A stretch of 64,000 nucleotides of DNA from Oscillospiraceae bacterium (GCA_051886995.1 JBJEYS010000173.1:1508-65507), one strand, 5' to 3'; positions 1-32,629 are shown, counted from the first letter of the stretch. Translations and numbers: made by a program. Notes: generated by a model not told the origin, from the letters alone.

Positions 1-2758
1 GCATCTGCTGGGGGGAGCGGCAGGTGGAGATGTGGCCGGCCAGATCGGGGTACCGCTTTTCGCAGAACCGGACCCAGGCCGGGCAGCAGCTGGTGAACAG
101 GGGCAGATTCTCTCCCTTGGTCACCCGCTCCAAAAACTCATTGGCCTCCTCCACAATGGTCAGGTCGGCGGAGAACGTGGTATCGTACACGGCGTCAAAC
201 CCGGCCTTGCGCAGAGCAGCCGTCAGACGGCCGATGGCGTTTGAACCCTTGGGCAGACCAAAGGCGTCGCTGACGCCAACCCGCACGGAAGGAGCGATCT
301 GGGCCACCACCATGGTGTTGGGATCATCCAGCGCCGCGCCCACCACATCCAGATTCTTTTTCAGACGGATGCCGCCAGTGGGGCATACGGTGGTACACTG
401 TCCGCAGCCCACGCAGGAGCTCTCCGCCATGGCGGCGGCGCCGCGAGGCGATACAAAGGTGGCGCCGTCACGGGTCACCATCTCGATGGCGCTGACCGTC
501 TGGACCTTCTGACACATCTCCACACAGCTGCCGCACTGGATACACTTGTTGGGGTCCAGCACAATGCAGTTGGAGCTTTCGTCCATGGGGAGCCTGCGGT
601 AGTACTTGGAGCGGTAGTAGCGCTCCTCGATCTTGCAGTCCGGGTTCGGGGAGATGCGGCAGAGCAGCGCCCGCAGCTGATAGGAGCCAAAGCACAGGTT
701 GTAGGGCCCTTCGCCCGAAGTCAGTACGTTGACGTTGGACTCCTGCCAACCGTGCTCGGGGTCCTCCGCCTCGGGATACCACCAGCCCATCTCGCAGTTG
801 ACGATGCGCGGATCCATCCCGTCCAGGAACTTGGCCTTCTGGGTGATCTTTCCCCGGGGAGTCTCGATCCACACCCAATCGCCGTCCTTGATGCCGTACT
901 TCGCACCGGTTTCGGGATTCATGGTGACATTGGGGAAGGGCGCCCGGCTGCGTAGAGAGGCGATCTGACGGTTGTTGGAGATAAAGAACTGCTGCCGGCG
1001 GCTGCCGGTCGTCAGCCCCAGCGGGTACACCTGGGCGATATCTGGACGCAGGCGGTAGCTCTCCGCAGCGTCCTCCCAGAACGGCAGCGGGTCTCCGCCC
1101 TCCTCCTCAGTCAGCTGGGAATACAGCTCGAATTTTCCGCTGGGCGTATTGAAGCCCTTTTCCTTGTAGTTGTAATAGGTGCGCTTGGGCTCCAGGTAGC
1201 CGATCTTTTTGAATTGCTCAAAGGTCATGCCGGCCAGCTCCGGGCGGCGGCGGCCCATCTCGGCCAGCTGCCCGTTGTAGATTTCCTCCAGGCTGTCCGC
1301 GCCGTAATCCAGCCCCATGCGGCGGCTGAGCTCCAGGAACACTTCTTCGTCCGACCGGCACTCCCCCACCTGCACTACCTTCTGCATACAGAGGATGGCC
1401 TGTTCGCTGAACTCCGGCATGCAGAACACCTCGTCCAGTTCGGGCCAGAAGGCGGCGGGCAGGAAAATGTCCGCCAGCTCAGCGGTGGGAGTCATGAAGA
1501 AATCCATGCAGACCATGAAGTCCAGCTTTTCCAGACTTTCACGGACGTATTTGCTCTCAGGCATGGACAGAAGCGCGTTGTTGGCGTGGAACAGGGCGGC
1601 GCGCACACGGTAGGGATAACCGTCCCGCATGGCCTGCAGGACCGCGCGGGGATGAGCCATGGTGGCCTTTGTGGTATGGGGCAGGCCCGCGCTCAGACAC
1701 TTGGCCTTCATCTCATCGCTGAGCCGGTCCAGCAGGGTATCGGCCGTGGGTGCGATCTCCAGGCTGGGCACAAAGCCGCCGGGCACATCATAGTTGCCGG
1801 TAATGCCCATCAGGATGTACAGGGCACGGCAGGTCTGCAGGGAGTTGCGGGTCTGCTCGATGGCGCAGCCCCACTCCAGGCCCAGGGGCTTGACTGTGGC
1901 GATCACACGCCCCAGCTTGACTATATCTTCCTCCGGAACCCAGGTGATCTTGGAAACGCGCTTGACGTCATACTGCGCCACGCGGGCCTTCAGTTCCTCA
2001 AAGCCGTAGCACCAGTTGGCCACAAAGTCATGATCGTACAGTTCTTCCGAGATGATCACATTCAAAACGCCCAGGGCCAGTGCGCCGTCGGTGCCGGGGC
2101 GCAGGCGCACCCACATATCGGCATAGGGCGTCAGCTCGGTGGGCTTGGGGTCAACGATGATGATGGGCGTGCCCTCCTTCACCGCGTCCTTGATGAACCA
2201 CTGCAGTTCGCCGTCGGCGCCGCTGACGGCGGGGTTGCTGCCCCAGATCAGGATGCCGCCGGGCTTCACGTCGCCGTAGTAGTCCACGCTGGAGTAGGTG
2301 CCGGAGGTCCAGCGGCCGGCATGGACGCGGGGGTCCAGGCAGATCAGCGGGCCGGAGGAGACTCCGTTGGGCGTGCCCAGCACATGGGAAAAACGCCAGA
2401 AATGCGCCATATGGTGGCGACCGGTTCCCGTAAACATGGAGATACTTTCCGGCCCGTAGGTATCCCGGATGTCGGTCAGCCGGGAGGCAACGATGCTCAG
2501 GGCCTCTTCCCAGTTAATGCGTTCCCACTGGCCGGAACCACGGGGGCCGATCCGCTTCATGGGATAGGTGATCCGGTCGGGATGGTACATCTGCTCAATG
2601 ATCGAAACGCCCTTGGCGCATGCCCGTCCCTTGTTCAGGGGGGCGTCGGGGTCGGGTTCCACCCTGACTAGCTTTCCGTCCTCCACCGTCAGGATGTGGA
2701 CGCAGCCGCCATGGCAGCCCCGGCATGCCGCTCTGAATTGGTTCGGTCTCAGTTCCAT
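1..2758 (-). CDS. Molybdopterin (bis-MGD family) oxidoreductase fused in frame to a 2x[4Fe-4S] ferredoxin and an [FeFe]-hydrogenase H-domain. Partial: the C-terminus runs off the left edge.
   Basis: Minus-strand ATG at 2756-2758, preceded by GGAGGAAGG. N-terminus MELRPNQFRAACRGCHGGCVH...NKGRACAKG is the CX2CX3C..C FeS motif of Mo/W-bisMGD enzymes. A GDWVWIETPRGKITQKAKF-type Mo-dinucleotide-binding segment lies at about 830-890. I read the frame codon by codon across 74-415 and 512-1261 and found no stop. The ORF is missing from the track only because it is open at the edge. Distal part: CIQCGSCVEMC (512-544), CVGCGQCTTVCP (380-415), APSVRVGVSDAFG, FDAVYDTTFSADLTIVEE, PLFTSCCPAWVRF (74-97, hydrogenase L1 signature). 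Confidence 0.8.
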   Translation of the reverse strand, partial: MELRPNQFRAACRGCHGGCVHILTVEDGKLVRVEPDPDAPLNKGRACAKGVSIIEQMYHPDRITYPMKRIGPRGSGQWERINWEEALSIVASRLTDIRDTYGPESISMFTGTGRHHMAHFWRFSHVLGTPNGVSSGPLICLDPRVHAGRWTSGTYSSVDYYGDVKPGGILIWGSNPAVSGADGELQWFIKDAVKEGTPIIIVDPKPTELTPYADMWVRLRPGTDGALALGVLNVIISEELYDHDFVANWCYGFEELKARVAQYDVKRVSKITWVPEEDIVKLGRVIATVKPLGLEWGCAIEQTRNSLQTCRALYILMGITGNYDVPGGFVPSLEIAPTADTLLDRLSDEMKAKCLSAGLPHTTKATMAHPRAVLQAMRDGYPYRVRAALFHANNALLSMPESKYVRESLEKLDFMVCMDFFMTPTAELADIFLPAAFWPELDEVFCMPEFSEQAILCMQKVVQVGECRSDEEVFLELSRRMGLDYGADSLEEIYNGQLAEMGRRRPELAGMTFEQFKKIGYLEPKRTYYNYKEKGFNTPSGKFELYSQLTEEEGGDPLPFWEDAAESYRLRPDIAQVYPLGLTTGSRRQQFFISNNRQIASLRSRAPFPNVTMNPETGAKYGIKDGDWVWIETPRGKITQKAKFLDGMDPRIVNCEMGWWYPEAEDPEHGWQESNVNVLTSGEGPYNLCFGSYQLRALLCRISPNPDCKIEERYYRSKYYRRLPMDESSNCIVLDPNKCIQCGSCVEMCQKVQTVSAIEMVTRDGATFVSPRGAAAMAESSCVGCGQCTTVCPTGGIRLKKNLDVVGAALDDPNTMVVAQIAPSVRVGVSDAFGLPKGSNAIGRLTAALRKAGFDAVYDTTFSADLTIVEEANEFLERVTKGENLPLFTSCCPAWVRFCEKRYPDLAGHISTCRSPQQM

Positions 2759-2790
2759 AGCTTTCCTTCCTCCGAATTGCCATTAGGGTT

Positions 2791-2824
2791 CAGGCTGCCG
2801 GAAAAAGTCTTTTCCGGCAGCCTG
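2791..2824. terminator. Perfect 15-bp stem-loop between the MFS gene and the Mo/hydrogenase gene (intra-operon hairpin)
   Basis: CAGGCTGCCGGAAAA-agtc-TTTTCCGGCAGCCTG. A T-run follows only on the plus strand, so on the coding (minus) strand it is a hairpin without a U-tract. Confidence 0.4.
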
Positions 2825-2866
2825 ATGCTTTTTAGCCTTTTGAGTTGTTCCCGTGCTCTCTGACTG

Positions 2867-4231
2867 TTATTCCTTGTAGAACGCGGTGGGCTTCTGCCCG
2901 GGTTCCTTATCGATGCGGTTGGAAGCGAAGAAGATCAGGATGGTGCCGATCAGGGAAGCCACGGCGAAGGCGGCATACGCGGCGCGGTAGCCTTCGGTCA
3001 GCTTCAGGCTGGTGGACAGGATCAGGGGGGCGGTCACTGTGAAGATCTGCATGATCACCGCGGAGCGGCCCCAGATGACGGGGTAGTCGCGGGGGCCGTA
3101 CAGGGACATGATGTGGGACATGACCATGTTGGCGTTGGAGCCGGTCATGAAGAAGAACAGGAACACAAAGATAAAGTTGGTGACGGTGTTGTAGGGCAGG
3201 AAGCCGCCGCACAGACCGGAGATGATATAGCCAATGCCCATCATCAGGCCGGCACGGCGGGTACCGATCTTCTGATCCAGCCAGCCGCCGAAGATGGAGC
3301 CGGGGACGGCGAACAGGGGCAGCAGCTTCATCCAGCGGGCGGCAGCTCCGGCCGCCATGCCTTTCGCAGCGTCAGGAGCGACGCCGCTGGCGATGAGCTC
3401 GGGCACACGCATGGACATCTGATAGGGAACCATCTGCTGCAGGAAGCCGGAGGAGACCATGAACAGAAGGCCGTAGCCAATCATAACAAGCCAGAAGTTC
3501 CGATCCTTCAGAACTTCCTTCATGGTCCACACGCGTGGGCCGCTCATGCGTGCCCGCAGGGCGGCGCGCTCCTCCTCGGTGCTGTCGCCGTTGTCGGGCT
3601 CAAAGCCGGCTTTGCGGGGATCAACAGGGAAGCAGAACCAGTTGATGATGCCCCAGACGATGGTGGCGATACCGAAGACCACCAGGGCCTTGCCGACGCC
3701 GCCCCAGGCGATCAGAGCGGTCAGGATGGACAGGGTGATCAGGTTGGCCAGGTTGTTGCCGATGGAGGCCCAGCCCAGGGCGGAACCCTTCTTGGTGGGG
3801 AACCAGTTGGTAATGATCATGGGCTCAGCGACCTGAGAGGCGTTGGCGGCCATGACGAAGACCAGGAACACCACGACGCAGTAGCCCACCGGGCTGTCCA
3901 CATAGCCGTAGAAGCAGCAGGCGATGCCGCCGACAATACAGACCAGGGTAAACATGATGCGGGTCTTGAACTTGCCGTACAGAGCGCCCAGGATAAAGCA
4001 GGGGATGATGCTGGCGTAGCCGATGTAGGAGTTCATGGCCAGGACCTGATATTTTTCCAGGCCCATCTGCGCGGCCTTAAGATCGGCCAGGGTATTCTGG
4101 GCCGTGCCATTCCACCAGCCGCCGCTGATGAACATCCAGGCGATCATCACGTAGATGATGCACCACCAGCCCTTGACGCCGTAGTTGAAGTTTGTCTTCT
4201 TGCGCAGGGTCGTAGCAGGTTGCTTTTCCAT
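2867..4231 (-). CDS. MFS transporter
   Basis: Track ORF 2867..4312. The preferred start is the internal ATG at 4231 (MEKQPATT...) behind GAAAGGAG. About 12 hydrophobic segments and a glycine-rich, MFS-like composition. Confidence 0.8.
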   Translation of the reverse strand: MEKQPATTLRKKTNFNYGVKGWWCIIYVMIAWMFISGGWWNGTAQNTLADLKAAQMGLEKYQVLAMNSYIGYASIIPCFILGALYGKFKTRIMFTLVCIVGGIACCFYGYVDSPVGYCVVVFLVFVMAANASQVAEPMIITNWFPTKKGSALGWASIGNNLANLITLSILTALIAWGGVGKALVVFGIATIVWGIINWFCFPVDPRKAGFEPDNGDSTEEERAALRARMSGPRVWTMKEVLKDRNFWLVMIGYGLLFMVSSGFLQQMVPYQMSMRVPELIASGVAPDAAKGMAAGAAARWMKLLPLFAVPGSIFGGWLDQKIGTRRAGLMMGIGYIISGLCGGFLPYNTVTNFIFVFLFFFMTGSNANMVMSHIMSLYGPRDYPVIWGRSAVIMQIFTVTAPLILSTSLKLTEGYRAAYAAFAVASLIGTILIFFASNRIDKEPGQKPTAFYKE

Positions 4232-4381
4232 ACCGAGTTCTCCTTTCAATTTCTCTTTTTCCTGAGAAACAGACGCTGTTTCCGGGCCGGACGGCCCTGG
4301 GACACGGAACAAACGCGGTGATCGGGACTCAACTCATTGAGGCAGGAATAAAAAAGCAGGTTTCCGTGCGCCCCGCCGCCC

Positions 4382-5551
4382 TTACAGGGTGTTGGGATTG
4401 ACGGGGATACCGGGACGGCCGGGATACTTGGCCTCCACGGCGCGGACCTCGGGATCGTCCAGGCAGCACAGCCAGCCCTTGTCGTAGACCTTGACGCCGC
4501 CCACGGTCAGATCGGCGTTGCGGATATCGCCGGTGATATGCGGATAGTAGTAATAGTTGGGCAGTGCGCCGGCAGAGCCAATGTGGACGTGCAGGTTGCA
4601 GGTGTGGGAGTGGTCGATAATGCGGCGGAAGCGGTCGTTGGGGCACTGGTACTTCTCCACATGGGCGTTGGGATGGCTACCGAAGTGGAAGGTATCGAAC
4701 TTGTAGATGCCGTCTCCCACCTTGCTCTCCAGATCCTTCAGCAGGCGGCGCAGCTGGCCGGCCTCATAGCCGCCCTTGATGTCCACCATGCGGGAATTCT
4801 CCACGGTAATGCTGATGGGAGTGTCCCACTCGGGCTGGATGTCCATGTAGCGGGACCACCAGGACAGCATGCAGTTGAAGTTGAACACGCCGTTGACGTC
4901 CTTGCAGTTGATGGGCGGATGGCACCAGTCGGGGAAGGGCAGGTAGTGGCTGGCCTCGTGGCGCCAGGAATTGTACGCCATGCCGGGGATGCCCTCGCGC
5001 TTGGTGGGATCCAGGGTATAGCCCTCCAGGTGGGTTCCGTTGGGATCGGTCATGACGAACTTGGGGGGCGTGTCATGGTTCATGAAGGGCTTGGAGCTGA
5101 CGTGGCGGATCATGGTGACCAGCTCATAGGGGGTCTGGGCCCACTCGGTCATCAGCAGTTCCGCAGTGCAGGGGAACATGCGCACCATCCAGGTGCCGCA
5201 CTCCTCCAGGTGGTCACGGAACTCGGACATTTCCTCGGTGACCAGATCGGCGGACAGGTTGATCATGACGTCGGCGGCAGCCACCGCGGCCTTCACCACG
5301 GGGTTGTAGCGCCACTTGTGCAGGACATGGGGCTCGTCGATCCACATGATGGTGCTGTGGGCCCCGCGGGTGGAGACCACCGTGGAGATCCAGGAGACAG
5401 CCTCCTCGTCCACCAGGTTGTCGCCGCCGTAAAGTCCGTCCTTCTGGGCAAGGATCAGGACCTCCTGGCCGGGCTTGATGCGGGCGCAGTTGTCCGCCAT
5501 GTCCATCAGGGGGATCAGTGCCGCTTCCGGGATTCCGACTTGAATAGCCAT
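4382..5551 (-). CDS. M29 aminopeptidase-like / NicX (2,5-dihydroxypyridine dioxygenase)-like family protein; function unknown
   Basis: Track ORF 4382..5581; start moved to ATG 5551 (MAIQVG...) behind GGAGGAA. The N-terminus ...CARIKPGQEVLILA... and the C-terminal block ISITVENSRMVDIKGGYEAGQLRRLL...FHFGSHPN...PHITGDIRNADLTVGGVKV parallel the NicX/AmpS layout as I recall it. Confidence 0.5.
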   Translation of the reverse strand: MAIQVGIPEAALIPLMDMADNCARIKPGQEVLILAQKDGLYGGDNLVDEEAVSWISTVVSTRGAHSTIMWIDEPHVLHKWRYNPVVKAAVAAADVMINLSADLVTEEMSEFRDHLEECGTWMVRMFPCTAELLMTEWAQTPYELVTMIRHVSSKPFMNHDTPPKFVMTDPNGTHLEGYTLDPTKREGIPGMAYNSWRHEASHYLPFPDWCHPPINCKDVNGVFNFNCMLSWWSRYMDIQPEWDTPISITVENSRMVDIKGGYEAGQLRRLLKDLESKVGDGIYKFDTFHFGSHPNAHVEKYQCPNDRFRRIIDHSHTCNLHVHIGSAGALPNYYYYPHITGDIRNADLTVGGVKVYDKGWLCCLDDPEVRAVEAKYPGRPGIPVNPNTL

Positions 5552-5646
5552 AATTGTTTCCTCCTTAAAAAATGTAAGCATATCTTGCAGGGAAAACTAC
5601 CGGGGGAACTTCAGAAATTACTTTCACGTCTTCAAATGTGGCCCCC

Positions 5647-5684
5647 GGGGAATATCACACCGCAAGCTGCTGTGTGATATTCCC
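5647..5684 (-). terminator. Stem-loop between hyuB-like and NicX-like genes (possible attenuator or processing site)
   Basis: GGGGAATATCACAC-n11-GTGTGATATTCCC inverted repeat; weak U-tract on the minus strand. Confidence 0.35.
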
Positions 5685-5730
5685 GCGGGCCAAAAGGAAG
5701 GGAAAAGGTATAATCAAAGCAAGCTGAATT

Positions 5731-7458
5731 TTAAGAGCGCCGCAGGGCCGCGGTTGCAGCCTCATCAACCTTGAGGGTGGTGGGATCGATGACGACCTTA
5801 TAGACTTCCTTGGCGAAGTCGATGGAAACCAGTTCGTTCAACACGTCGTACTCCACGGCCTTGGGGTCGCGCTTGGCGGGATCGCCCACGCCGGCGCCGC
5901 CGCCGGTGACGGAGACTTCCACATCACCCAGGTTGGTATAGAAATCCTTGGATTCAAAGGGATCGACGGTGCCGTCGGCGCGCTCGATATGGGCCACGTT
6001 CAGCGGGGCGTCCTGACCGCCCTGCAGGCCCTTGGCCTGGGTCTTGAAGCCGTCCCAGGAGCCGGTCTGGTGGAAACAGCGGCCGGCATGGTTCTCGATG
6101 GCCCAGACGATGCCGGGGGCGCCGCGCCACTGTCCGGCGCCGTGCTTGTCGGTGACGAACTCATAGGCTTTGTACTCCCAGGGGAAGCGCTGCATCTCGT
6201 CCTCCACGTTGGTCTTGCCGATGTTGCCCAAAGTGGAACCGGCGGCGCAGCTCTGGTAGCCGTCCAGACCGTAGGTGGCACCGGCGCCTGCGGAAGCACT
6301 GAAGGAGACGAACACGCCGGGTTTGCCCATGGTGATGATGTTGGACGTGACCTGACGGCTGTAGGGGGCGATGGCCTTTTCGGGCAGGACCTGGCTGAGC
6401 AGGTTCTGGATGACCTCGTTGACAAGGCCGCCGGTCAGGGCCACGCCCGCGGCGATCTTGGCGGTGCGGCTGGCATCCACCAGAGTGCCGGGCTTGGTCT
6501 TCATGTGGATGGGACGGCAGCTGCCCTCGTTGTGATACGTCAGCAGATCCCTGCCGAAGAACAGGAAGGAGTTGCAGCAGCAGTCGGAGTAGGTCATGTA
6601 GTCGTGGATGTTCAGCATACCGTCGGTCTCGGGATCGGTGTCCGAGAAGTCGAAATACAGGTCGGAGCCCTTGACGGTCAGGCTGGCGCGGACGGTGATG
6701 GGCTTGGACAGGTCCTTGCCGTCGCTGTCGGCGGAGGCCTCGGCGTACCAGGTGCCGTCGGGCCAGCTCTCGATCTGCTTGCGCACGGCGCTTTCGGCGC
6801 GGTTCATCATCTCGTGGGTGCAGGCAACGACGGTGTCGCGGCCGTACTTCTCGCACAGCTCGCCCAGACGCTTGTCGCCGATGGCCAGACTGCCGATGCA
6901 GGCGGAGCTTTCACGGCGCATCAGGTCGGGCTGGCGGTTGTTGGCCATGATCATGTCGAACACTTCATCGTTCCACATGCCGGCCTTGACGATGCGGCTC
7001 AGAGGGATGTTGAAGCCCTCGGAGATGTTGTCGAAGGACATGAAGTTGGAGCCGGGCTGCGCGCCGCCGTTGTCGGCCACGTGAACGCCCATGACCGCGA
7101 AGAAGGTCAGCTTGCCCTCACAGAAGACGGGACGGATGTACACCCAGTCGGGCAGGTGCGCGGCGCCGTCGTCGGGGGTGTTGGCCAGGAACACATCGCC
7201 GGGATGGATGTCGTCGCCGAACTTCTCCTTGATGTGCTGTACACCCAGCTTCGGGCTGAGCAGACGGTGGGGGATGCCTTCGGGAACAGCCAGGGCGTTT
7301 CCATCGGCGTCATAGATGGTGTAAGCAAGGTCGTGCAGGGTGACGATCAGAACGTTGGTGGCGGTACGCTCGACGGTCTCACGCATCTCGCGGCAGACGC
7401 GCCAGAAGTAGCTCCAGACAGTCGTGATCGTGACAGAATCCAAAGGTTTGCTGCTCAT
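5731..7458 (-). CDS. Hydantoinase B/oxoprolinase family protein (HyuB-like)
   Basis: Track ORF 5731..7473 starts at a TTG. ATG 7458 (MSSKPLDSVTITTVWSYF...) behind GGGAGGG is preferred. Length and sequence are typical of HyuB/OplaH B subunits. It begins 2 nt after the hyuA-like stop. Confidence 0.85.
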   Translation of the reverse strand: MSSKPLDSVTITTVWSYFWRVCREMRETVERTATNVLIVTLHDLAYTIYDADGNALAVPEGIPHRLLSPKLGVQHIKEKFGDDIHPGDVFLANTPDDGAAHLPDWVYIRPVFCEGKLTFFAVMGVHVADNGGAQPGSNFMSFDNISEGFNIPLSRIVKAGMWNDEVFDMIMANNRQPDLMRRESSACIGSLAIGDKRLGELCEKYGRDTVVACTHEMMNRAESAVRKQIESWPDGTWYAEASADSDGKDLSKPITVRASLTVKGSDLYFDFSDTDPETDGMLNIHDYMTYSDCCCNSFLFFGRDLLTYHNEGSCRPIHMKTKPGTLVDASRTAKIAAGVALTGGLVNEVIQNLLSQVLPEKAIAPYSRQVTSNIITMGKPGVFVSFSASAGAGATYGLDGYQSCAAGSTLGNIGKTNVEDEMQRFPWEYKAYEFVTDKHGAGQWRGAPGIVWAIENHAGRCFHQTGSWDGFKTQAKGLQGGQDAPLNVAHIERADGTVDPFESKDFYTNLGDVEVSVTGGGAGVGDPAKRDPKAVEYDVLNELVSIDFAKEVYKVVIDPTTLKVDEAATAALRRS

Positions 7459-7460
7459 GC

Positions 7461-9524
7461 TCAACCCTCCCAATAAACGATAAAGTTGCCGTACTCGTCC
7501 ACCTTCACAGTGTTGTGGGCGGGGATGACGGATGTTGCGGTCTTCTGCTCGATGACGCAGGGACCCTTGACCTCGTTGCCGGCCAAAAGCTTGTCACCGT
7601 CGTAGATGGGCAGGTCGGCGGACTTGCCGTTGACGAAGGTCTCGCGCGTGGCGATCCGGGCGGCGGAGGCGTCGGCGGTGCCCGCTTTGATCTTGTTGAC
7701 CTTGAAGGGGCTGCCGGGCATCCGGGCGGTCATCCGGATGTTGGTCAGCTGGATGGGTACCCAGGGCAGATCAAAGGTGAAGGTATCCTTGTGCAGCTGG
7801 TGGAAGCCGGCGACCATCTGATCCAGGACTTCCTGCGTGACGTCCAGACTGGAGATCTTCAGCTCCAACTCGTGGTACTGGTTGGCGTAGTGCACGTCGG
7901 CGGTCAGCTCGAAGATCAGGTCGGCCTCGGTGACGTTGAAGTACGCGAAGTCCTTCACGGCGGTGGCCTTCATATCATCGACCAGAGCGCGGATCTCCTC
8001 CGGCTTGGCCTGATCGAAGTTGCGCAGGTAGGGGCGGACATAGTCGCGGCCGATGTCCAGATAGAACATGCTCTTGGCGCAGAAGGCGGAGGCATTCTTG
8101 GGGATCACGCAGCGGGGCATGCCCAGGATGTTGGACACGGCAACGCCGCACAGGGGGCCGCCGCCGCCCACCGCCAGCAGGGAGAAGTCGCGCACGTCGT
8201 AGCCCTTGCGGGTGGAGATGACGCTGATGCCGTCGGCCATGTTGTGGTTGACGGTGGTGTAGATCATCTGCGCGGCCTCCTCGACGGTGACGCCCAGAGG
8301 ATCGGCCACCTTCTTGATGGCCTGACGGGCCAGCTCCTTGGAGAGCTTCAGCTTGCCGCCGTTGAAGTTGTCGGGGTTGATGTAGCCCAGGGTCAGGGCC
8401 GCGTCGGTCACGGTGGGCTCGGTGCCGCCGCGCTGATAGCAGGCGGGGCCGGGCTCGGAGGAGGCGGACTGGGGACCCACGGACAGCAGGCCCATGGGGT
8501 TGATCCAGGCGATGGAGCCGCCGCCGGCGCCGATGGACAGAACTTCCGCCATCTTGATGCCGCACAGATCCTCCTCCAGCCAGGTGTTGGTGGCCAGAGA
8601 GACCTCGCCGTTGGAGACCATGGAGGCGTCCCAGGTGGTGCCGCCCATGTCGCCGATCAGGAAGTTCTTCTCGTTGATCTGCTCACCCAGGCGGACCGCG
8701 CCGACGGGACCGGCGGAGGGGCCGGAGTTGTTCAGATAGACGGGCTTGTCAATGATGGCAGGGATGGACTGCAGGTACTGGTTGCACTGGACGATCAGCA
8801 GCTGGCCCTTGAACTCCAGCTTCTTCAGTTCGTTCTCCAGATCGGTCAGGTACTTCTTGACGATGGGGCCCAGGCAGGCGCTGATGACGCAGGTGGAAAA
8901 ACGCTTGTACTCGCCCATCTGGGGCAGCTCCTTGGTGGAGCTGGTCACATACAGCTCGGGGGCCTTCTGCTTGATATAGTCCACGACCTTGCATTCGTTG
9001 GCGTCGTTCAGATAGGAGTTGATGAAGCAGACGGCCACCGACTCGCAGCCCTCCGCCTTGATTTTCGCCAGAACGGCGTCCAGCTCCGCGGGATCCACTT
9101 CCACGGAAACCTCGCCGTTGGGGCGGGTGCACTCCTTCACGCCGTAGCGCAGGTAGCGGGGAATGAAGGGCTCGTAGGGCGGGATGTAGCCGTCAAAGAG
9201 GGAGTGGGTCTCGATCTTCTGGCACTGGCGCATCTCGATGATGTCACGAAAGCCCTCGGTGGTGATCATGGCGGTCTTGGCCATCTTCCGCTCGACCACG
9301 GCGTTGGTGGCCACGGTGGTGCCGTGGATGATCCAGTCGGTCTCGGCCAGGAACTCCTTCAGGCTCTTGCCGAAGTACTCCGCGCCGTAGGTGATGGCGT
9401 TCAGCACGCCCTCATGGAAACGGCCGGGGGTCGTTGGTGCCTTGAACTCGTAAACGTTGTTTTCTCCATCCTGTACCATGCAGTCGGTAAACGTACCGCC
9501 GGTATCGACACATACTTTAAACAC
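7461..9524 (-). CDS. Hydantoinase/oxoprolinase family protein (HyuA-like, ATP-binding subunit)
   Basis: 687 aa. GTG start at 9524, 6 nt after GGAGG. The N-terminus MFKVCVDTGGTFTDCMV is the canonical HyuA DxGGTFTD motif. Confidence 0.9.
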   Translation of the reverse strand: MFKVCVDTGGTFTDCMVQDGENNVYEFKAPTTPGRFHEGVLNAITYGAEYFGKSLKEFLAETDWIIHGTTVATNAVVERKMAKTAMITTEGFRDIIEMRQCQKIETHSLFDGYIPPYEPFIPRYLRYGVKECTRPNGEVSVEVDPAELDAVLAKIKAEGCESVAVCFINSYLNDANECKVVDYIKQKAPELYVTSSTKELPQMGEYKRFSTCVISACLGPIVKKYLTDLENELKKLEFKGQLLIVQCNQYLQSIPAIIDKPVYLNNSGPSAGPVGAVRLGEQINEKNFLIGDMGGTTWDASMVSNGEVSLATNTWLEEDLCGIKMAEVLSIGAGGGSIAWINPMGLLSVGPQSASSEPGPACYQRGGTEPTVTDAALTLGYINPDNFNGGKLKLSKELARQAIKKVADPLGVTVEEAAQMIYTTVNHNMADGISVISTRKGYDVRDFSLLAVGGGGPLCGVAVSNILGMPRCVIPKNASAFCAKSMFYLDIGRDYVRPYLRNFDQAKPEEIRALVDDMKATAVKDFAYFNVTEADLIFELTADVHYANQYHELELKISSLDVTQEVLDQMVAGFHQLHKDTFTFDLPWVPIQLTNIRMTARMPGSPFKVNKIKAGTADASAARIATRETFVNGKSADLPIYDGDKLLAGNEVKGPCVIEQKTATSVIPAHNTVKVDEYGNFIVYWEG

Positions 9525-9591
9525 GATGTTCCTCCTTCAAGCAGGCTTTTCTGCTGTAGATTTAACAGAATATCCGGGATGTTGTGCACCC

Positions 9592-9620
9592 AATATAGCA
9601 CATCTGACCAAAAACATTTG
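9592..9620 (-). promoter_or_regulatory. Candidate extended -10 promoter of the hyuA operon
   Basis: The minus strand reads TGCTATATT (-10 at 9592-9597 with a TG extension at 9599-9600). The -35 position (9615-9620) has no good hexamer and is overlapped by palindrome 1. Confidence 0.45.
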
Positions 9621-9636
9621 TCGCGCATACGACAAA
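9617..9636. promoter_or_regulatory. Operator-like palindrome 1: TTTGTCG-N6-CGACAAA
   Basis: Perfect 7-bp arms TTTGTCG cgcata CGACAAA, overlapping the -35 position of the predicted promoter. Confidence 0.55.
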
Positions 9637-9673
9637 TACGAACTAAAACGCTTTTTCCCTCCTTTTATTTTGA

Positions 9674-9693
9674 TTTGTCGTCCGCGCGACAAA
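9674..9693. promoter_or_regulatory. Operator-like palindrome 2: TTTGTCG-N6-CGACAAA
   Basis: Perfect 7-bp arms TTTGTCG tccgcg CGACAAA, 57 bp (centre to centre) upstream of palindrome 1. Confidence 0.55.
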
Positions 9694-9737
9694 ACAAAAT
9701 CAAGATTGCCCAAGACCTTTCATTGCGTACGAAAATA

Positions 9738-9801
9738 GTTATCCCAACTTAAATCGTCAAACAGTGTGAATAAGCAGTTCGGCGAAAAAAGTTGGGATAA
9801 C
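9738..9801. repeat. 13-bp perfect inverted repeat with a 38-nt spacer, downstream of lipoprotein gene A
   Basis: GTTATCCCAACTT (9738-9750) / AAGTTGGGATAAC (9789-9801) in an AT-rich stretch. On the minus strand a T-run follows each arm. Confidence 0.5.
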
Positions 9802-31753: not shown

Positions 31754-32629
31754 ATGATCATCGAATACAGACCTGAACTGACCCCGGAGGAGCGCGCGCT
31801 TCCTCTGAGCAAATACTATGACCTTCCCCTCAATTCCCTGGGGCCCCTTTTCCAGCAGATCATGGACAATGGCCCGCTGCGCCAGGATCAGTGCCTGGAG
31901 GCCAAAGACTGGAAGAAACATCTTCAGGTGCCCGGTCAGTATGACCGCCCTGTGTTCGGTTACCGCACCATGGATGACGGCACCGGCTATCTGGCTACCT
32001 ACAGCCTGTACACCGCGGCGACCCCCAAGATGATGCAGTGGTATTTCCGCTGGATCAACATTCCCTCCAAAAGCCAGCCCAAGGGCGTGGGCAATCTGAG
32101 ATATAAGATCTGGTGCCCCCCCTGTCACATCACCCACGGTTTCGTCAACGGCAAGGATAAGTTCGGCGGTGTGTACACTGTGGAAGCCCTGGAACTGGAT
32201 AAGGAGAAGCAGAATTTCTTCTTCACCGTCCGCACCCACGTTGACCTGCGTGAGCTTGGCCTTTCCGAAGAGGAGGAGAAGAAGCTCAATGAGGCCGGTG
32301 TGTGGATCGACCCCGCCGTCGAGAATTTCTACGAGATCAACGGCAATGACTATGAGCACCTGGGCAAGCAGCTGCCCGGCTCCCACCTCTGCCTGACCAT
32401 GTCCCGTCCCTGCCCCACCGGCGGAATGGAGAAGGTCACCCTTGAGTGGATCGGCTACGGCGTCAAGGACGGAACGATCTGGCGCGACGAGAGCACCCCC
32501 GCGTATATGTTCTCCGAGGAGTGGCTCCGCATGGCCCTGACACACACCACGACCGAGGCGCAGCAGCTTGGCAAGTTCCTTCCCGAGCTCTATGCCGAAT
32601 ATGCGGATAAACCCGACGACGCCGACTGA
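31754..32629 (+). CDS. PhlG / phloretin-hydrolase-like (DAPG-hydrolase family) protein; tentative
   Basis: 291 aa, cytoplasmic. The length and the His(125/128)...His264-x3-Glu268 arrangement resemble the Zn site (His, Glu, His-x3-Glu) I recall for PhlG. No search was done. Confidence 0.4.
   Translation: MIIEYRPELTPEERALPLSKYYDLPLNSLGPLFQQIMDNGPLRQDQCLEAKDWKKHLQVPGQYDRPVFGYRTMDDGTGYLATYSLYTAATPKMMQWYFRWINIPSKSQPKGVGNLRYKIWCPPCHITHGFVNGKDKFGGVYTVEALELDKEKQNFFFTVRTHVDLRELGLSEEEEKKLNEAGVWIDPAVENFYEINGNDYEHLGKQLPGSHLCLTMSRPCPTGGMEKVTLEWIGYGVKDGTIWRDESTPAYMFSEEWLRMALTHTTTEAQQLGKFLPELYAEYADKPDDAD

Follow-up and report, generated by a model that had tools for sequence, protein, structure and literature searches.

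What compound do the genes at one end of this stretch of DNA break down, and do all of them serve a single pathway? The stretch (64,000 nucleotides from an Oscillospiraceae bacterium, GCA_051886995.1 JBJEYS010000173.1:1508-65507; hereafter the window, meaning the whole of it) is contig C173:1508-65507 of a metagenome-assembled genome of 1.46 Mb, which is divided over 319 contigs and is 55% complete. On its minus strand, between positions 1 and 9524, five co-directional genes lie downstream of one predicted promoter, namely hyuA, hyuB, a gene for a NicX-fold metalloenzyme, a gene of the major facilitator superfamily (MFS) and a gene that joins a molybdenum (Mo) enzyme to a hydrogenase. The original prediction had described this arrangement, and all of it was found, with a single extended -10 promoter; the substrate class that it proposed, an N-heterocycle or cyclic amide, is where our reading departs from it. 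We estimate a probability of about one half that the locus serves a strictly anaerobic gut bacterium (Clostridia; related proteins carry the label Oscillospiraceae) as a catabolic regulon induced by its substrate, directed at a polyphenol-type ring and built around a core of HyuAB and the NicX-fold enzyme. From their arrangement and the promoter region described below, the five genes are predicted to be one jointly regulated catabolic regulon. They are, in order of transcription:

7461..9524, minus strand: hyuA, ATP-binding subunit of the hydantoinase/oxoprolinase family (687 amino acids), GTG start with GAAGGAGG upstream
5731..7458, minus strand: hyuB, Hydantoinase_B subunit (575 amino acids), start at ATG 7458, not TTG 7473
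4382..5551, minus strand: gene for the NicX-fold metalloenzyme (389 amino acids), start at Met11 of the listed open reading frame (ORF), behind AAGGAGG
2867..4231, minus strand: gene for a putative MFS importer (454 amino acids; Pfam MFS_1), ATG 4231 behind AAAGGAG
1..2758, minus strand: gene for a fusion of a Mo- or tungsten (W)-bis(pyranopterin guanine dinucleotide) (bisPGD) domain, 2x[4Fe-4S] and an [FeFe]-hydrogenase H-domain, of which the first 919 of 1159 amino acids lie in the window (whole gene L001:779-4258, minus strand)

Three of these starts (hyuB, the NicX-like gene and the MFS gene) were corrected relative to the mechanical ORF list. With the hyuB ATG at 7458 and the hyuA stop TGA at 7461-7463, the gap between the two genes is exactly 2 nucleotides, so that the translational coupling claimed for this pair is right. 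The start of the NicX-like gene is matched by the starts of its homologues and by the Atlas record, and that of the MFS gene agrees with orthologue alignments, which begin at residue 35. The MFS protein, which matches NCBIfam models of MFS transporters for bile salts, L-lactate and oxalate/formate only weakly, is probably an importer akin to oxalate/formate antiporters and monocarboxylate transporters.

The third protein had no Pfam match by hmmscan even at E = 10, with a model set that lacks PF26233, and none in NCBIfam; PF26233 (the NicX family) has precomputed matches on some of its homologues, and the nearest clusters in the Atlas are labelled NicX (score 0.96). An AF2 model built with 20 homologues (predicted local distance difference test score 88) had NicX as its best Foldseek match (7cn3; E = 3e-18, template-modelling score 0.62/0.70); ranks 1-3 were all NicX chains (E = 3e-18 to 8e-16), followed by M29 aminopeptidases (E = 1e-11 to 1e-9) and then by CgnB and CgnE. 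At the level of the predicted structure, the NicX/M29 assignment made from the sequence alone is confirmed. The window protein thus has its fold in common with NicX of Pseudomonas putida (2,5-dihydroxypyridine 5,6-dioxygenase; 7cn3, 7cup) and with the M29 enzymes PepS, AmpS and AmpT, but it is about 14% identical to NicX, carries six additional invariant histidines and belongs to a family that occurs in strict anaerobes. The histidines that are invariant in the family are at positions 88, 221, 299, 303, 324, 331, 333 and 348, and the family profile contains an FHFG motif and the invariant His299, aligned with the NicX Fe ligand His265. Its partners, HyuAB or a lactonase, also differ from those of NicX in the nicotinate pathway, which are NicD/NicF-type enzymes. 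At least 847 homologue clusters, 50-96% identical to the window protein, were found, all of them "hypothetical" or unnamed. As a candidate for dihydrophloroglucinol cyclohydrolase (DPGC), a ring hydrolase of the cyclase family (PF04199), the protein was rejected on its lack of a Pfam match and its NicX fold; it could be a functional analogue of DPGC at most.

To which genes this family is linked was seen in a scan of one genome per prokaryote species, which gave 76 loci with a NicX-like gene, whose neighbouring ORFs were called and clustered and whose cluster representatives were annotated. The loci come from Lachnospiraceae, Oscillospiraceae, Erysipelotrichaceae, Actinomycetota, Thermoleophilia, Chloroflexota, Acidobacteriota and Desulfobacterota, and identity within the family stays above 50% over at least five phyla. 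The NicX-like gene has hyuAB within 10 kb in 8/76 loci from four phyla (nine with the cut hyuB of L059), the products being 50-61% identical to the HyuAB of the window, and in 30/76 it has, downstream and within the same distance, a gene for a seven-bladed beta-propeller lactonase; HyuAB and the lactonase together were seen beside it in none of the 76. In a FastTree phylogeny the NicX-like family splits into two major clades, and the window protein is nested in the lactonase-linked clade while the other HyuAB-linked members fall in the other, which indicates that partners have been exchanged. We therefore regard HyuAB and the NicX-fold enzyme as a conserved core module by the evidence of gene linkage, in which the lactonase appears to replace HyuAB in other lineages. 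The conservation of the neighbourhood, which the original prediction named as a check, holds for this module, which is kept across phyla, and not for the set of five genes, which is not co-conserved, the closest operon being without the fusion.

The phylogeny of HyuA is consistent with such a partnership. In a maximum-likelihood tree, seven NicX-linked HyuA proteins from Bacillota, Actinomycetota and Thermodesulfobacteriota, that of the window included, form a clade with 100/100 support; a branch of 0.93 lies between it and eight HyuA paralogues from the bacterial family of the window. A sample of 200 other genomes of that family contained two, of one genus, with close HyuA orthologues (86%) and eight more with HyuA paralogues at 33-37% identity, and a NicX-like gene was seen in none of these eight. 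It had been foreseen that HyuAB might instead cluster with housekeeping 5-oxoprolinases; a housekeeping 5-oxoprolinase is rejected on this patchy distribution and on the separate, NicX-linked clade. HyuAB is best explained as a dedicated partner of the NicX-fold enzyme.

The substrate is suggested by what surrounds this module. Mo enzymes resembling pyrogallol transhydroxylase (AthL-like) occur in 33/76 NicX-like loci, together with BthL-like FeS subunits that bear a CarboxypepD_reg tail. The other recurrent enzymes are Amidohydro_2 proteins, phenolic-acid-type decarboxylases, BKACE, SDR, 3HCDH, ECH and thiolase with an HMGCS/DUF35 fusion, as well as CoA-transferases, an ADP-forming CoA ligase, RraA-like (GalC-like) and PIG-L (GalB-like) proteins and aldehyde:ferredoxin oxidoreductase, accompanied by TRAP, Liv-type or Opp-type importers and by MarR or LysR regulators. 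A HyuA-centred scan of metagenome contigs gave 17 loci, among which the same genes recur in the orders AthL-like-BthL-like-3HCDH-SDR-BKACE-CoA ligase-MarR-HyuA (L131), DctM-Amidohydro_2-MarR-HyuA (L129), ECH-BKACE-x-HyuA (L128) and NicX-like-HyuA-HyuB (L125), which places the HyuAB clade in polyphenol-type clusters like those of the NicX-like family. Downstream of the closest orthologous operon (L008:13576-21170) lie a divergent LysR gene, a 926-residue AthL-like protein, a BthL-like FeS subunit, a UbiA-family membrane protein and a second AthL-like protein. Among the recurrent annotated neighbours in the 93 related loci there was no deaminase, carbamoylase, amidase, urease-like, xanthine-oxidase-family or other nitrogen-handling gene. 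In six Lachnospiraceae loci (L013, L014, L025, L027, L029, L078), two NicX-like paralogues flank an Opp-type importer beside LysR, DUF6282, PIG-L, up to three RraA-like proteins and a gene resembling thiamine pyrophosphate/ferredoxin oxidoreductases, a layout that resembles the lower gallate pathway but is found in strict anaerobes.

These neighbours can be set against what is known. In Clostridium scatologenes, phloroglucinol is degraded anaerobically by PGR (an SDR reductase), DPGC (the ring hydrolase of the cyclase family), TfD (a dehydrogenase) and TAL (a BKACE lyase) (PMC10470551). Pelobacter acidigallici has the pyrogallol-phloroglucinol transhydroxylase AthL/BthL. Related loci unite AthL/BthL-like enzymes with SDR, 3HCDH, BKACE (TAL-like), thiolase and CoA-transferase genes and with the NicX-fold and HyuAB genes. 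The window operon differs from the Clostridium scatologenes pathway in lacking PGR, TfD and TAL and in that DPGC belongs to the cyclase family (PMC10470551) and not to the NicX fold. BKACE is encoded in 15/93 loci, whereas the cyclase family was detected in 1/93 (by tblastn with four cyclase queries only), and this is the pattern of a missing step that the NicX-fold enzyme and its partner could fill. On these grounds the substrate is most likely a ring that derives from a polyphenol (pyrogallol, phloroglucinol or resorcinol type) and carries a carboxyl group, or else the cyclic diketone to which such a ring is reduced; an N-heterocycle is less likely.

The remainder of the genome looks like that of a polyphenol degrader. 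At 31754-32629 of the window (plus strand), 22 kb from the operon, a 291-residue protein with a DAPG_hydrolase (PhlG) domain (58 bits) is encoded ahead of an esterase, which suggests a capacity for C-C hydrolysis of the acyl-phloroglucinol or phloretin type. A second module, with the order ABC importer, NicX-like protein (440 amino acids) and beta-propeller lactonase, lies on contig C15 (L123:4322-11952), and both types of module are thus present in this genome. The C15 importer is of the sugar type (Peripla_BP_4 binding protein, permeases, ATPase), and the NicX-like paralogue has an insertion of roughly 30 residues. Elsewhere there are four cyclase-family genes in two tandem pairs (C232, C32) and three BKACE genes (C242, C296, C254), which are candidates for a conventional phloroglucinol pathway. 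Given that the organism may possess its own DPGC, the HyuAB/NicX-fold module probably handles a related ring and not the identical one.

How the five genes might be jointly controlled is indicated by the 354-nucleotide region upstream of hyuA, which contains the following elements:

9675..9692, minus strand: distal operator palindrome, TTGTCG-N6-CGACAA, centred at about -98.5
9618..9635, minus strand: proximal operator palindrome, TTGTCG-N6-CGACAA, centred at -41.5 if TATATT is the -10
9592..9600, minus strand: extended -10 element TGCTATATT, predicted transcription start near 9585, leader of 61 nucleotides

These two perfect palindromes are the only ones in the 64-kb window, where 0.09 would be expected and where two were reached in 0/100 shuffles, and the available genome (1.46 Mb, 55% complete) holds no further perfect copy. 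An operator-like match on C206 was discarded; it has one mismatch and is at chance level, the reversed control pattern giving more matches. Class II activators of the Crp/Fnr family bind at a position centred near -41.5, and the proximal palindrome, occupying the place of the -35, fits such a site for the predicted start and predicted binding. The orthologous promoter of L008 keeps TGCTATAAT as its extended -10 and a half-site CGACAAA at an equal distance from TGCTATAAT. A gene of the Crp/Fnr family lies just outside the window, convergent with the fusion gene and 16 nucleotides from its stop; between the two stops (L001:762-779, contig C173) there is no terminator. Its product lacks the N-terminal cysteine motif of FNR and is therefore probably ligand-sensing. 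A second, weaker sigma-70-like match (TTGACG-17-TATTTT) lies at 9732-9760 on the minus strand, upstream of both palindromes; if that promoter is used, the palindromes would be downstream of the start and could be repressor sites.

The protein encoded by the last gene of the series has, over its 1159 residues, complete on the contig, the Pfam domains Molybdop_Fe4S4, Molybdopterin, Molydop_binding and Fe_hyd_lg_C (E = 2e-39), arranged as an N-terminal [4Fe-4S] motif (Cys12, Cys15, Cys19, Cys47), the Mo/W-bisPGD domain, two ferredoxin-type CxxCxxC motifs and the H-domain. The H-cluster motifs TSCCP, MPCxxKxxE and MACPGGCxxGGGQP are all present (residues 889, 946 and 1089), so that a complete group A [FeFe]-hydrogenase catalytic domain is predicted. 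The best solved match of the Mo/W domain is acetylene hydratase (2e7z; 339 bits), with which it shares the N-terminal [4Fe-4S] motif and the W-ligand Cys, here Cys140, followed by the formate dehydrogenase subunit of the hydrogen-dependent CO2 reductase (HDCR; 212 bits). The catalytic Asp13 of acetylene hydratase, beside the second cluster cysteine, is replaced by His16, and against the formate dehydrogenase alpha model (FdhF/HDCR; TIGR01591) the part of the protein in the window, which includes the whole Mo domain, scored 314 bits for a cut-off of 666. The domain is therefore taken to be neither of these enzymes, and a compact formate-hydrogen lyase is likewise rejected, because the formate dehydrogenase models are far below cut-off and the best solved match is acetylene hydratase. 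Fusion to a complete H-domain implies redox chemistry coupled to H2. HDCR (7qv7) also joins a bisPGD enzyme to an [FeFe] hydrogenase, but does so as a multi-subunit filament, whereas in the window fusion a single chain carries both, the Mo domain preceding the H-domain.

In databases the fusion family comprises about 75 full-length clusters that are annotated only generically, and orthologues of the fusion at 88-92% identity are on record; a literature search for an acetylene hydratase-hydrogenase fusion found no paper describing one. Among 400 genomes of the bacterial family, nine carried full-length fusions (48-61% identity) and about 35 stand-alone Mo proteins, mostly at 56-65%. In the window's genome, contigs C156, C161 and C199 (L002-L004) hold fragments of an apparent second, paralogous Mo::hydrogenase fusion that is split over contig ends, with identities to the first of 59% over residues 54-702, 55% over 690-1157 and 75% over 1-71.

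Whether this gene is part of the regulon is the question on which the strongest alternative turns. Two hairpins divide the spacers of the cluster:

5640..5690 (approximate), minus strand: long hairpin of about 24 bp, with TCACA/TGTGA in its arms, in the 179-nucleotide spacer between hyuB and the NicX-like gene (region z = -5.1)
2790..2825, minus strand: perfect 16-bp hairpin in the spacer between the MFS and fusion genes (region z = -4.4)

Neither is followed by a U-tract on the sense strand, in agreement with the original prediction. It is possible, though rather improbable, that a four-gene unit hyuA-hyuB-nicX-like-MFS ends at the 16-bp hairpin and that the Mo::hydrogenase gene is an unrelated neighbour with its own substrate, which landed between the operon and its regulator. 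In the closest orthologous operon (L008/G163, also G047; genus g47; 86-91% identity), the order is hyuA-hyuB-nicX-like-MFS, a hairpin and then crp, and these genomes are without the fused form. Two human-gut metagenome contigs (L124/L126, 98.9% alike) have, relative to L008, a deletion of roughly 3 kb in which the 3' end of hyuB, all of the NicX-like gene and the greater part of the MFS gene are lost and a hyuB-MFS remnant is left before crp, which indicates that the operon has decayed in some strains. Furthermore, 20 loci of the bacterial family that carry Mo or Mo::hydrogenase orthologues have no hyuAB or NicX-like neighbours, no conserved neighbour of any kind and no such operator, and co-occurrence at the genome level is weak, six of the 200 genomes searched for NicX-like genes bearing the fusion and one of those six a NicX-like gene. 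The absence of the fused form from the closest genomes, the 20 loci and the weak co-occurrence count against our own reading and for the four-gene unit; the strong hairpin ahead of the fusion gene, which could terminate transcription, also counts against our reading.

Several observations nevertheless tie the Mo gene to the operon. First, the hairpins alone do not mark the ends of transcription units, since an equally strong one divides the conserved partners hyuB and the NicX-like gene, and the 31 nucleotides between the hairpin at 2790-2825 and the fusion ATG leave no room in the window for a separate promoter; in this genome the fusion gene is probably expressed by read-through past the hairpin from the operon promoter. 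Second, the adjacency is retained in a strain about 90% identical, on a goat-gut contig from a different study that spans the MFS-fusion junction. Third, in a more distant relative (L127; HyuA 70% identical), the order hyuA-hyuB-MFS is followed by a canonical terminator, about 370 nucleotides and then a Mo gene, whose product is 72% identical to the Mo domain of the window and whose upstream spacer contains TTGTCG-N6-CGACAt, with one mismatch, 21 nucleotides before an extended -10 (TGATAGAGT), repeating the architecture of the hyuA promoter. Among 1.87 Mb of fetched loci this operator is the only such match outside the window's genome, and the chance expectation for that spacer is about 1e-3, but about four one-mismatch matches would arise by chance in the 1.87 Mb, so that it carries weight by its position only. 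Fourth, in a Chloroflexota locus (L072) the NicX-like gene is met in convergent orientation by the genes of a Mo enzyme of the acetylene-hydratase type (42% identical) and its ferredoxin-like FeS partner. Finally, as noted above, bisPGD enzymes adjoin NicX-like genes in 33/76 loci. From the adjacency in the close strain, the adjacency and operator of L127 and the convergence in L072, we favour, with some reserve, the view that the regulon includes the Mo gene, though only in certain lineages. Its assignment to the unit in the original prediction is thereby borne out in part, in that it is tied to the cluster in two lineages, and is qualified by the 20 loci in which its orthologues stand apart.

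A second alternative is the one originally proposed, in which the operon degrades an N-heterocycle or cyclic amide: HyuAB would open a lactam with ATP, the NicX/M29 enzyme would hydrolyse an amide or cleave a pyridine-type ring, and the Mo::hydrogenase would hydroxylate or reduce the heterocycle with H2 as its partner. HyuA (Hydant_A_N, E = 1e-43; Hydantoinase_A, 2e-74; Hydant_A_C, 1e-15) and HyuB (Hydantoinase_B, E = 7e-111 over profile positions 1-519/519) are assigned by these domains to the hydantoinase/oxoprolinase family, and they share with caprolactamase CapAB, N-methylhydantoinase HyuAB and 5-oxoprolinase the two-subunit A/B organization, the translational coupling, the three HyuA domains and a full HyuB. 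The best solved relatives of HyuA are a caprolactamase-type enzyme (6yra; 370 bits) and N-methylhydantoinase (366 bits), and its top curated model is the caprolactamase alpha subunit, at 545 bits compared with 320 bits for the acetophenone carboxylase gamma subunit. No third, carboxylase-type subunit is encoded in the operon, the fold of the third protein comes closest to NicX, which cleaves a pyridine, and importers of the peptide/opine or Liv type occur in some related loci.

However, the NCBIfam scores are far under the equivalog cut-offs. CapAB (NF050156/NF050157) was rejected at 545 and 230 bits for cut-offs of 1000, the whole-protein scores being about half of the cut-offs or less. Acetone and acetophenone carboxylases, whose A and B subunits are homologous and act in an anaerobic catabolic setting, were rejected as well: no extra small-subunit ORF, gamma or other, lies between or beside hyuA and hyuB, and the scores (ApcC 320 and ApcD 134 bits, cut-off 1500) are lower than those to the lactamases, although a keto or enol substrate of that kind would fit the keto-tautomers of polyphenols. 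In contrast to CapAB, N-methylhydantoinase and 5-oxoprolinase, the window HyuAB falls in a separate, NicX-linked clade with a patchy distribution, among polyphenol-type genes. Recurrent neighbours in the 93 loci are of the polyphenol (phloroglucinol) or beta-oxidation type and none handles nitrogen, which leaves the substrate class proposed earlier without support in these loci. Moreover, known N-heterocycle hydroxylases belong to the xanthine-oxidase family and not to the bisPGD enzymes, and bisPGD enzymes of the acetylene-hydratase and transhydroxylase types are known for phenol chemistry and not for the hydroxylation of N-heterocycles. An N-heterocyclic or lactam substrate thus appears unlikely.

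Least probable by far is that the NicX-fold protein is a true O2-dependent ring-cleaving dioxygenase of a micro-oxic gut whose GalB/GalC-like partners elsewhere complete a gallate-type meta-cleavage: His299 aligns with the Fe ligand of NicX, Ser336, His348 and Asp352 could match by spacing, and by spacing only, the rest of its Fe(II) site (His265/Ser302/His318/Asp320), and in the Lachnospiraceae loci two NicX-like genes stand beside those for PIG-L (GalB-like) and RraA-like (GalC-like) proteins, yet members of the family occur in Dehalococcoidia, Desulfobacterales, Syntrophorhabdaceae and Clostridia, all strict anaerobes, which makes O2 chemistry unlikely, and its neighbours ([FeFe] hydrogenase, AthL-like enzymes, aldehyde:ferredoxin oxidoreductase) are sensitive to O2. 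A model in which HyuAB opens a cyclic dipeptide for cleavage by an M29-like peptidase was also rejected, the fold and the aligned ligand being nearer to NicX and the neighbours not peptide-related.

The preferred reading, a regulon for a polyphenol-type ring, would operate as follows, the order of the steps and the direction of H2 flow being what we infer. A regulator of the Crp/Fnr family, probably ligand-sensing, would bind the twin TTGTCG-N6-CGACAA sites and activate the extended -10 promoter from -41.5, from which the five genes would be co-transcribed. A carboxylated phenolic, or its reduced cyclic diketone, would enter through the monocarboxylate-type MFS importer, and the Mo/W::hydrogenase could then use H2 to adjust the hydroxylation or reduction state of the ring, for example by reductive dehydroxylation or ring reduction. 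HyuAB would spend ATP to activate a ring carbonyl or enol and so open or carboxylate the ring, as its relatives do with lactams and ketones, and the NicX-fold enzyme, a His-rich mononuclear metal enzyme, would perform an O2-independent cleavage or hydrolysis on the same ring system.

Against this stand, beside the distribution of the fusion gene and the hairpin ahead of it, a number of other points. The substrate class is drawn for all of the proteins from gene context, while among characterised enzymes HyuAB is nearest to lactamases (caprolactamase, N-methylhydantoinase), and the substrate of NicX is a pyridine. Since the genome has cyclase-family and BKACE genes of its own, this organism does not depend on the module to supply an absent step. 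In addition, the related loci are not evolutionarily independent, and the linkage counts overstate significance for that reason.

A wider proposal, which we advance tentatively, is that the NicX-fold family could be a widespread class of metalloenzymes that cleave or otherwise process rings without O2 when polyphenols are degraded anaerobically. They would work with a lactonase or with the ATP-driven HyuAB, would take the place of the dihydrophloroglucinol hydrolase of the cyclase type in many Actinomycetota, Chloroflexota, Desulfobacterota and Clostridia, and in this gut lineage would be wired to H2 through a single-polypeptide Mo/W-[FeFe] hydrogenase. All of the parts come from known superfamilies; the literature searched has no description of the module of HyuAB and the NicX-fold enzyme, of the role of the family in anaerobes or of its connection with an H2-coupled bisPGD enzyme. 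No paper on the HyuAB and NicX-fold module was found there, which agrees with the original prediction that the combination was not a described pathway.

In summary, the anaerobic breakdown of rings derived from tannins and flavonoids bears on carbon turnover in peat and soil and on the fate of dietary polyphenols in the gut. To our knowledge, the cyclase-type DPGC is the sole ring opener known for this anaerobic chemistry. A conserved "hypothetical" NicX-fold family in polyphenol-type clusters marks a likely missing enzymatic step, for which it offers clear candidate proteins. The probably co-regulated Mo/W::[FeFe]-hydrogenase suggests a direct route from H2 to substrate without a soluble carrier, which is of interest for the H2 economy of the gut and for biocatalysis. 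It is an old observation that bacteria which degrade polyphenols in the rumen, Eubacterium oxidoreducens for one, require H2 or formate; if the wider proposal is true, an H2-wired NicX-fold pathway would be a molecular basis for that requirement.

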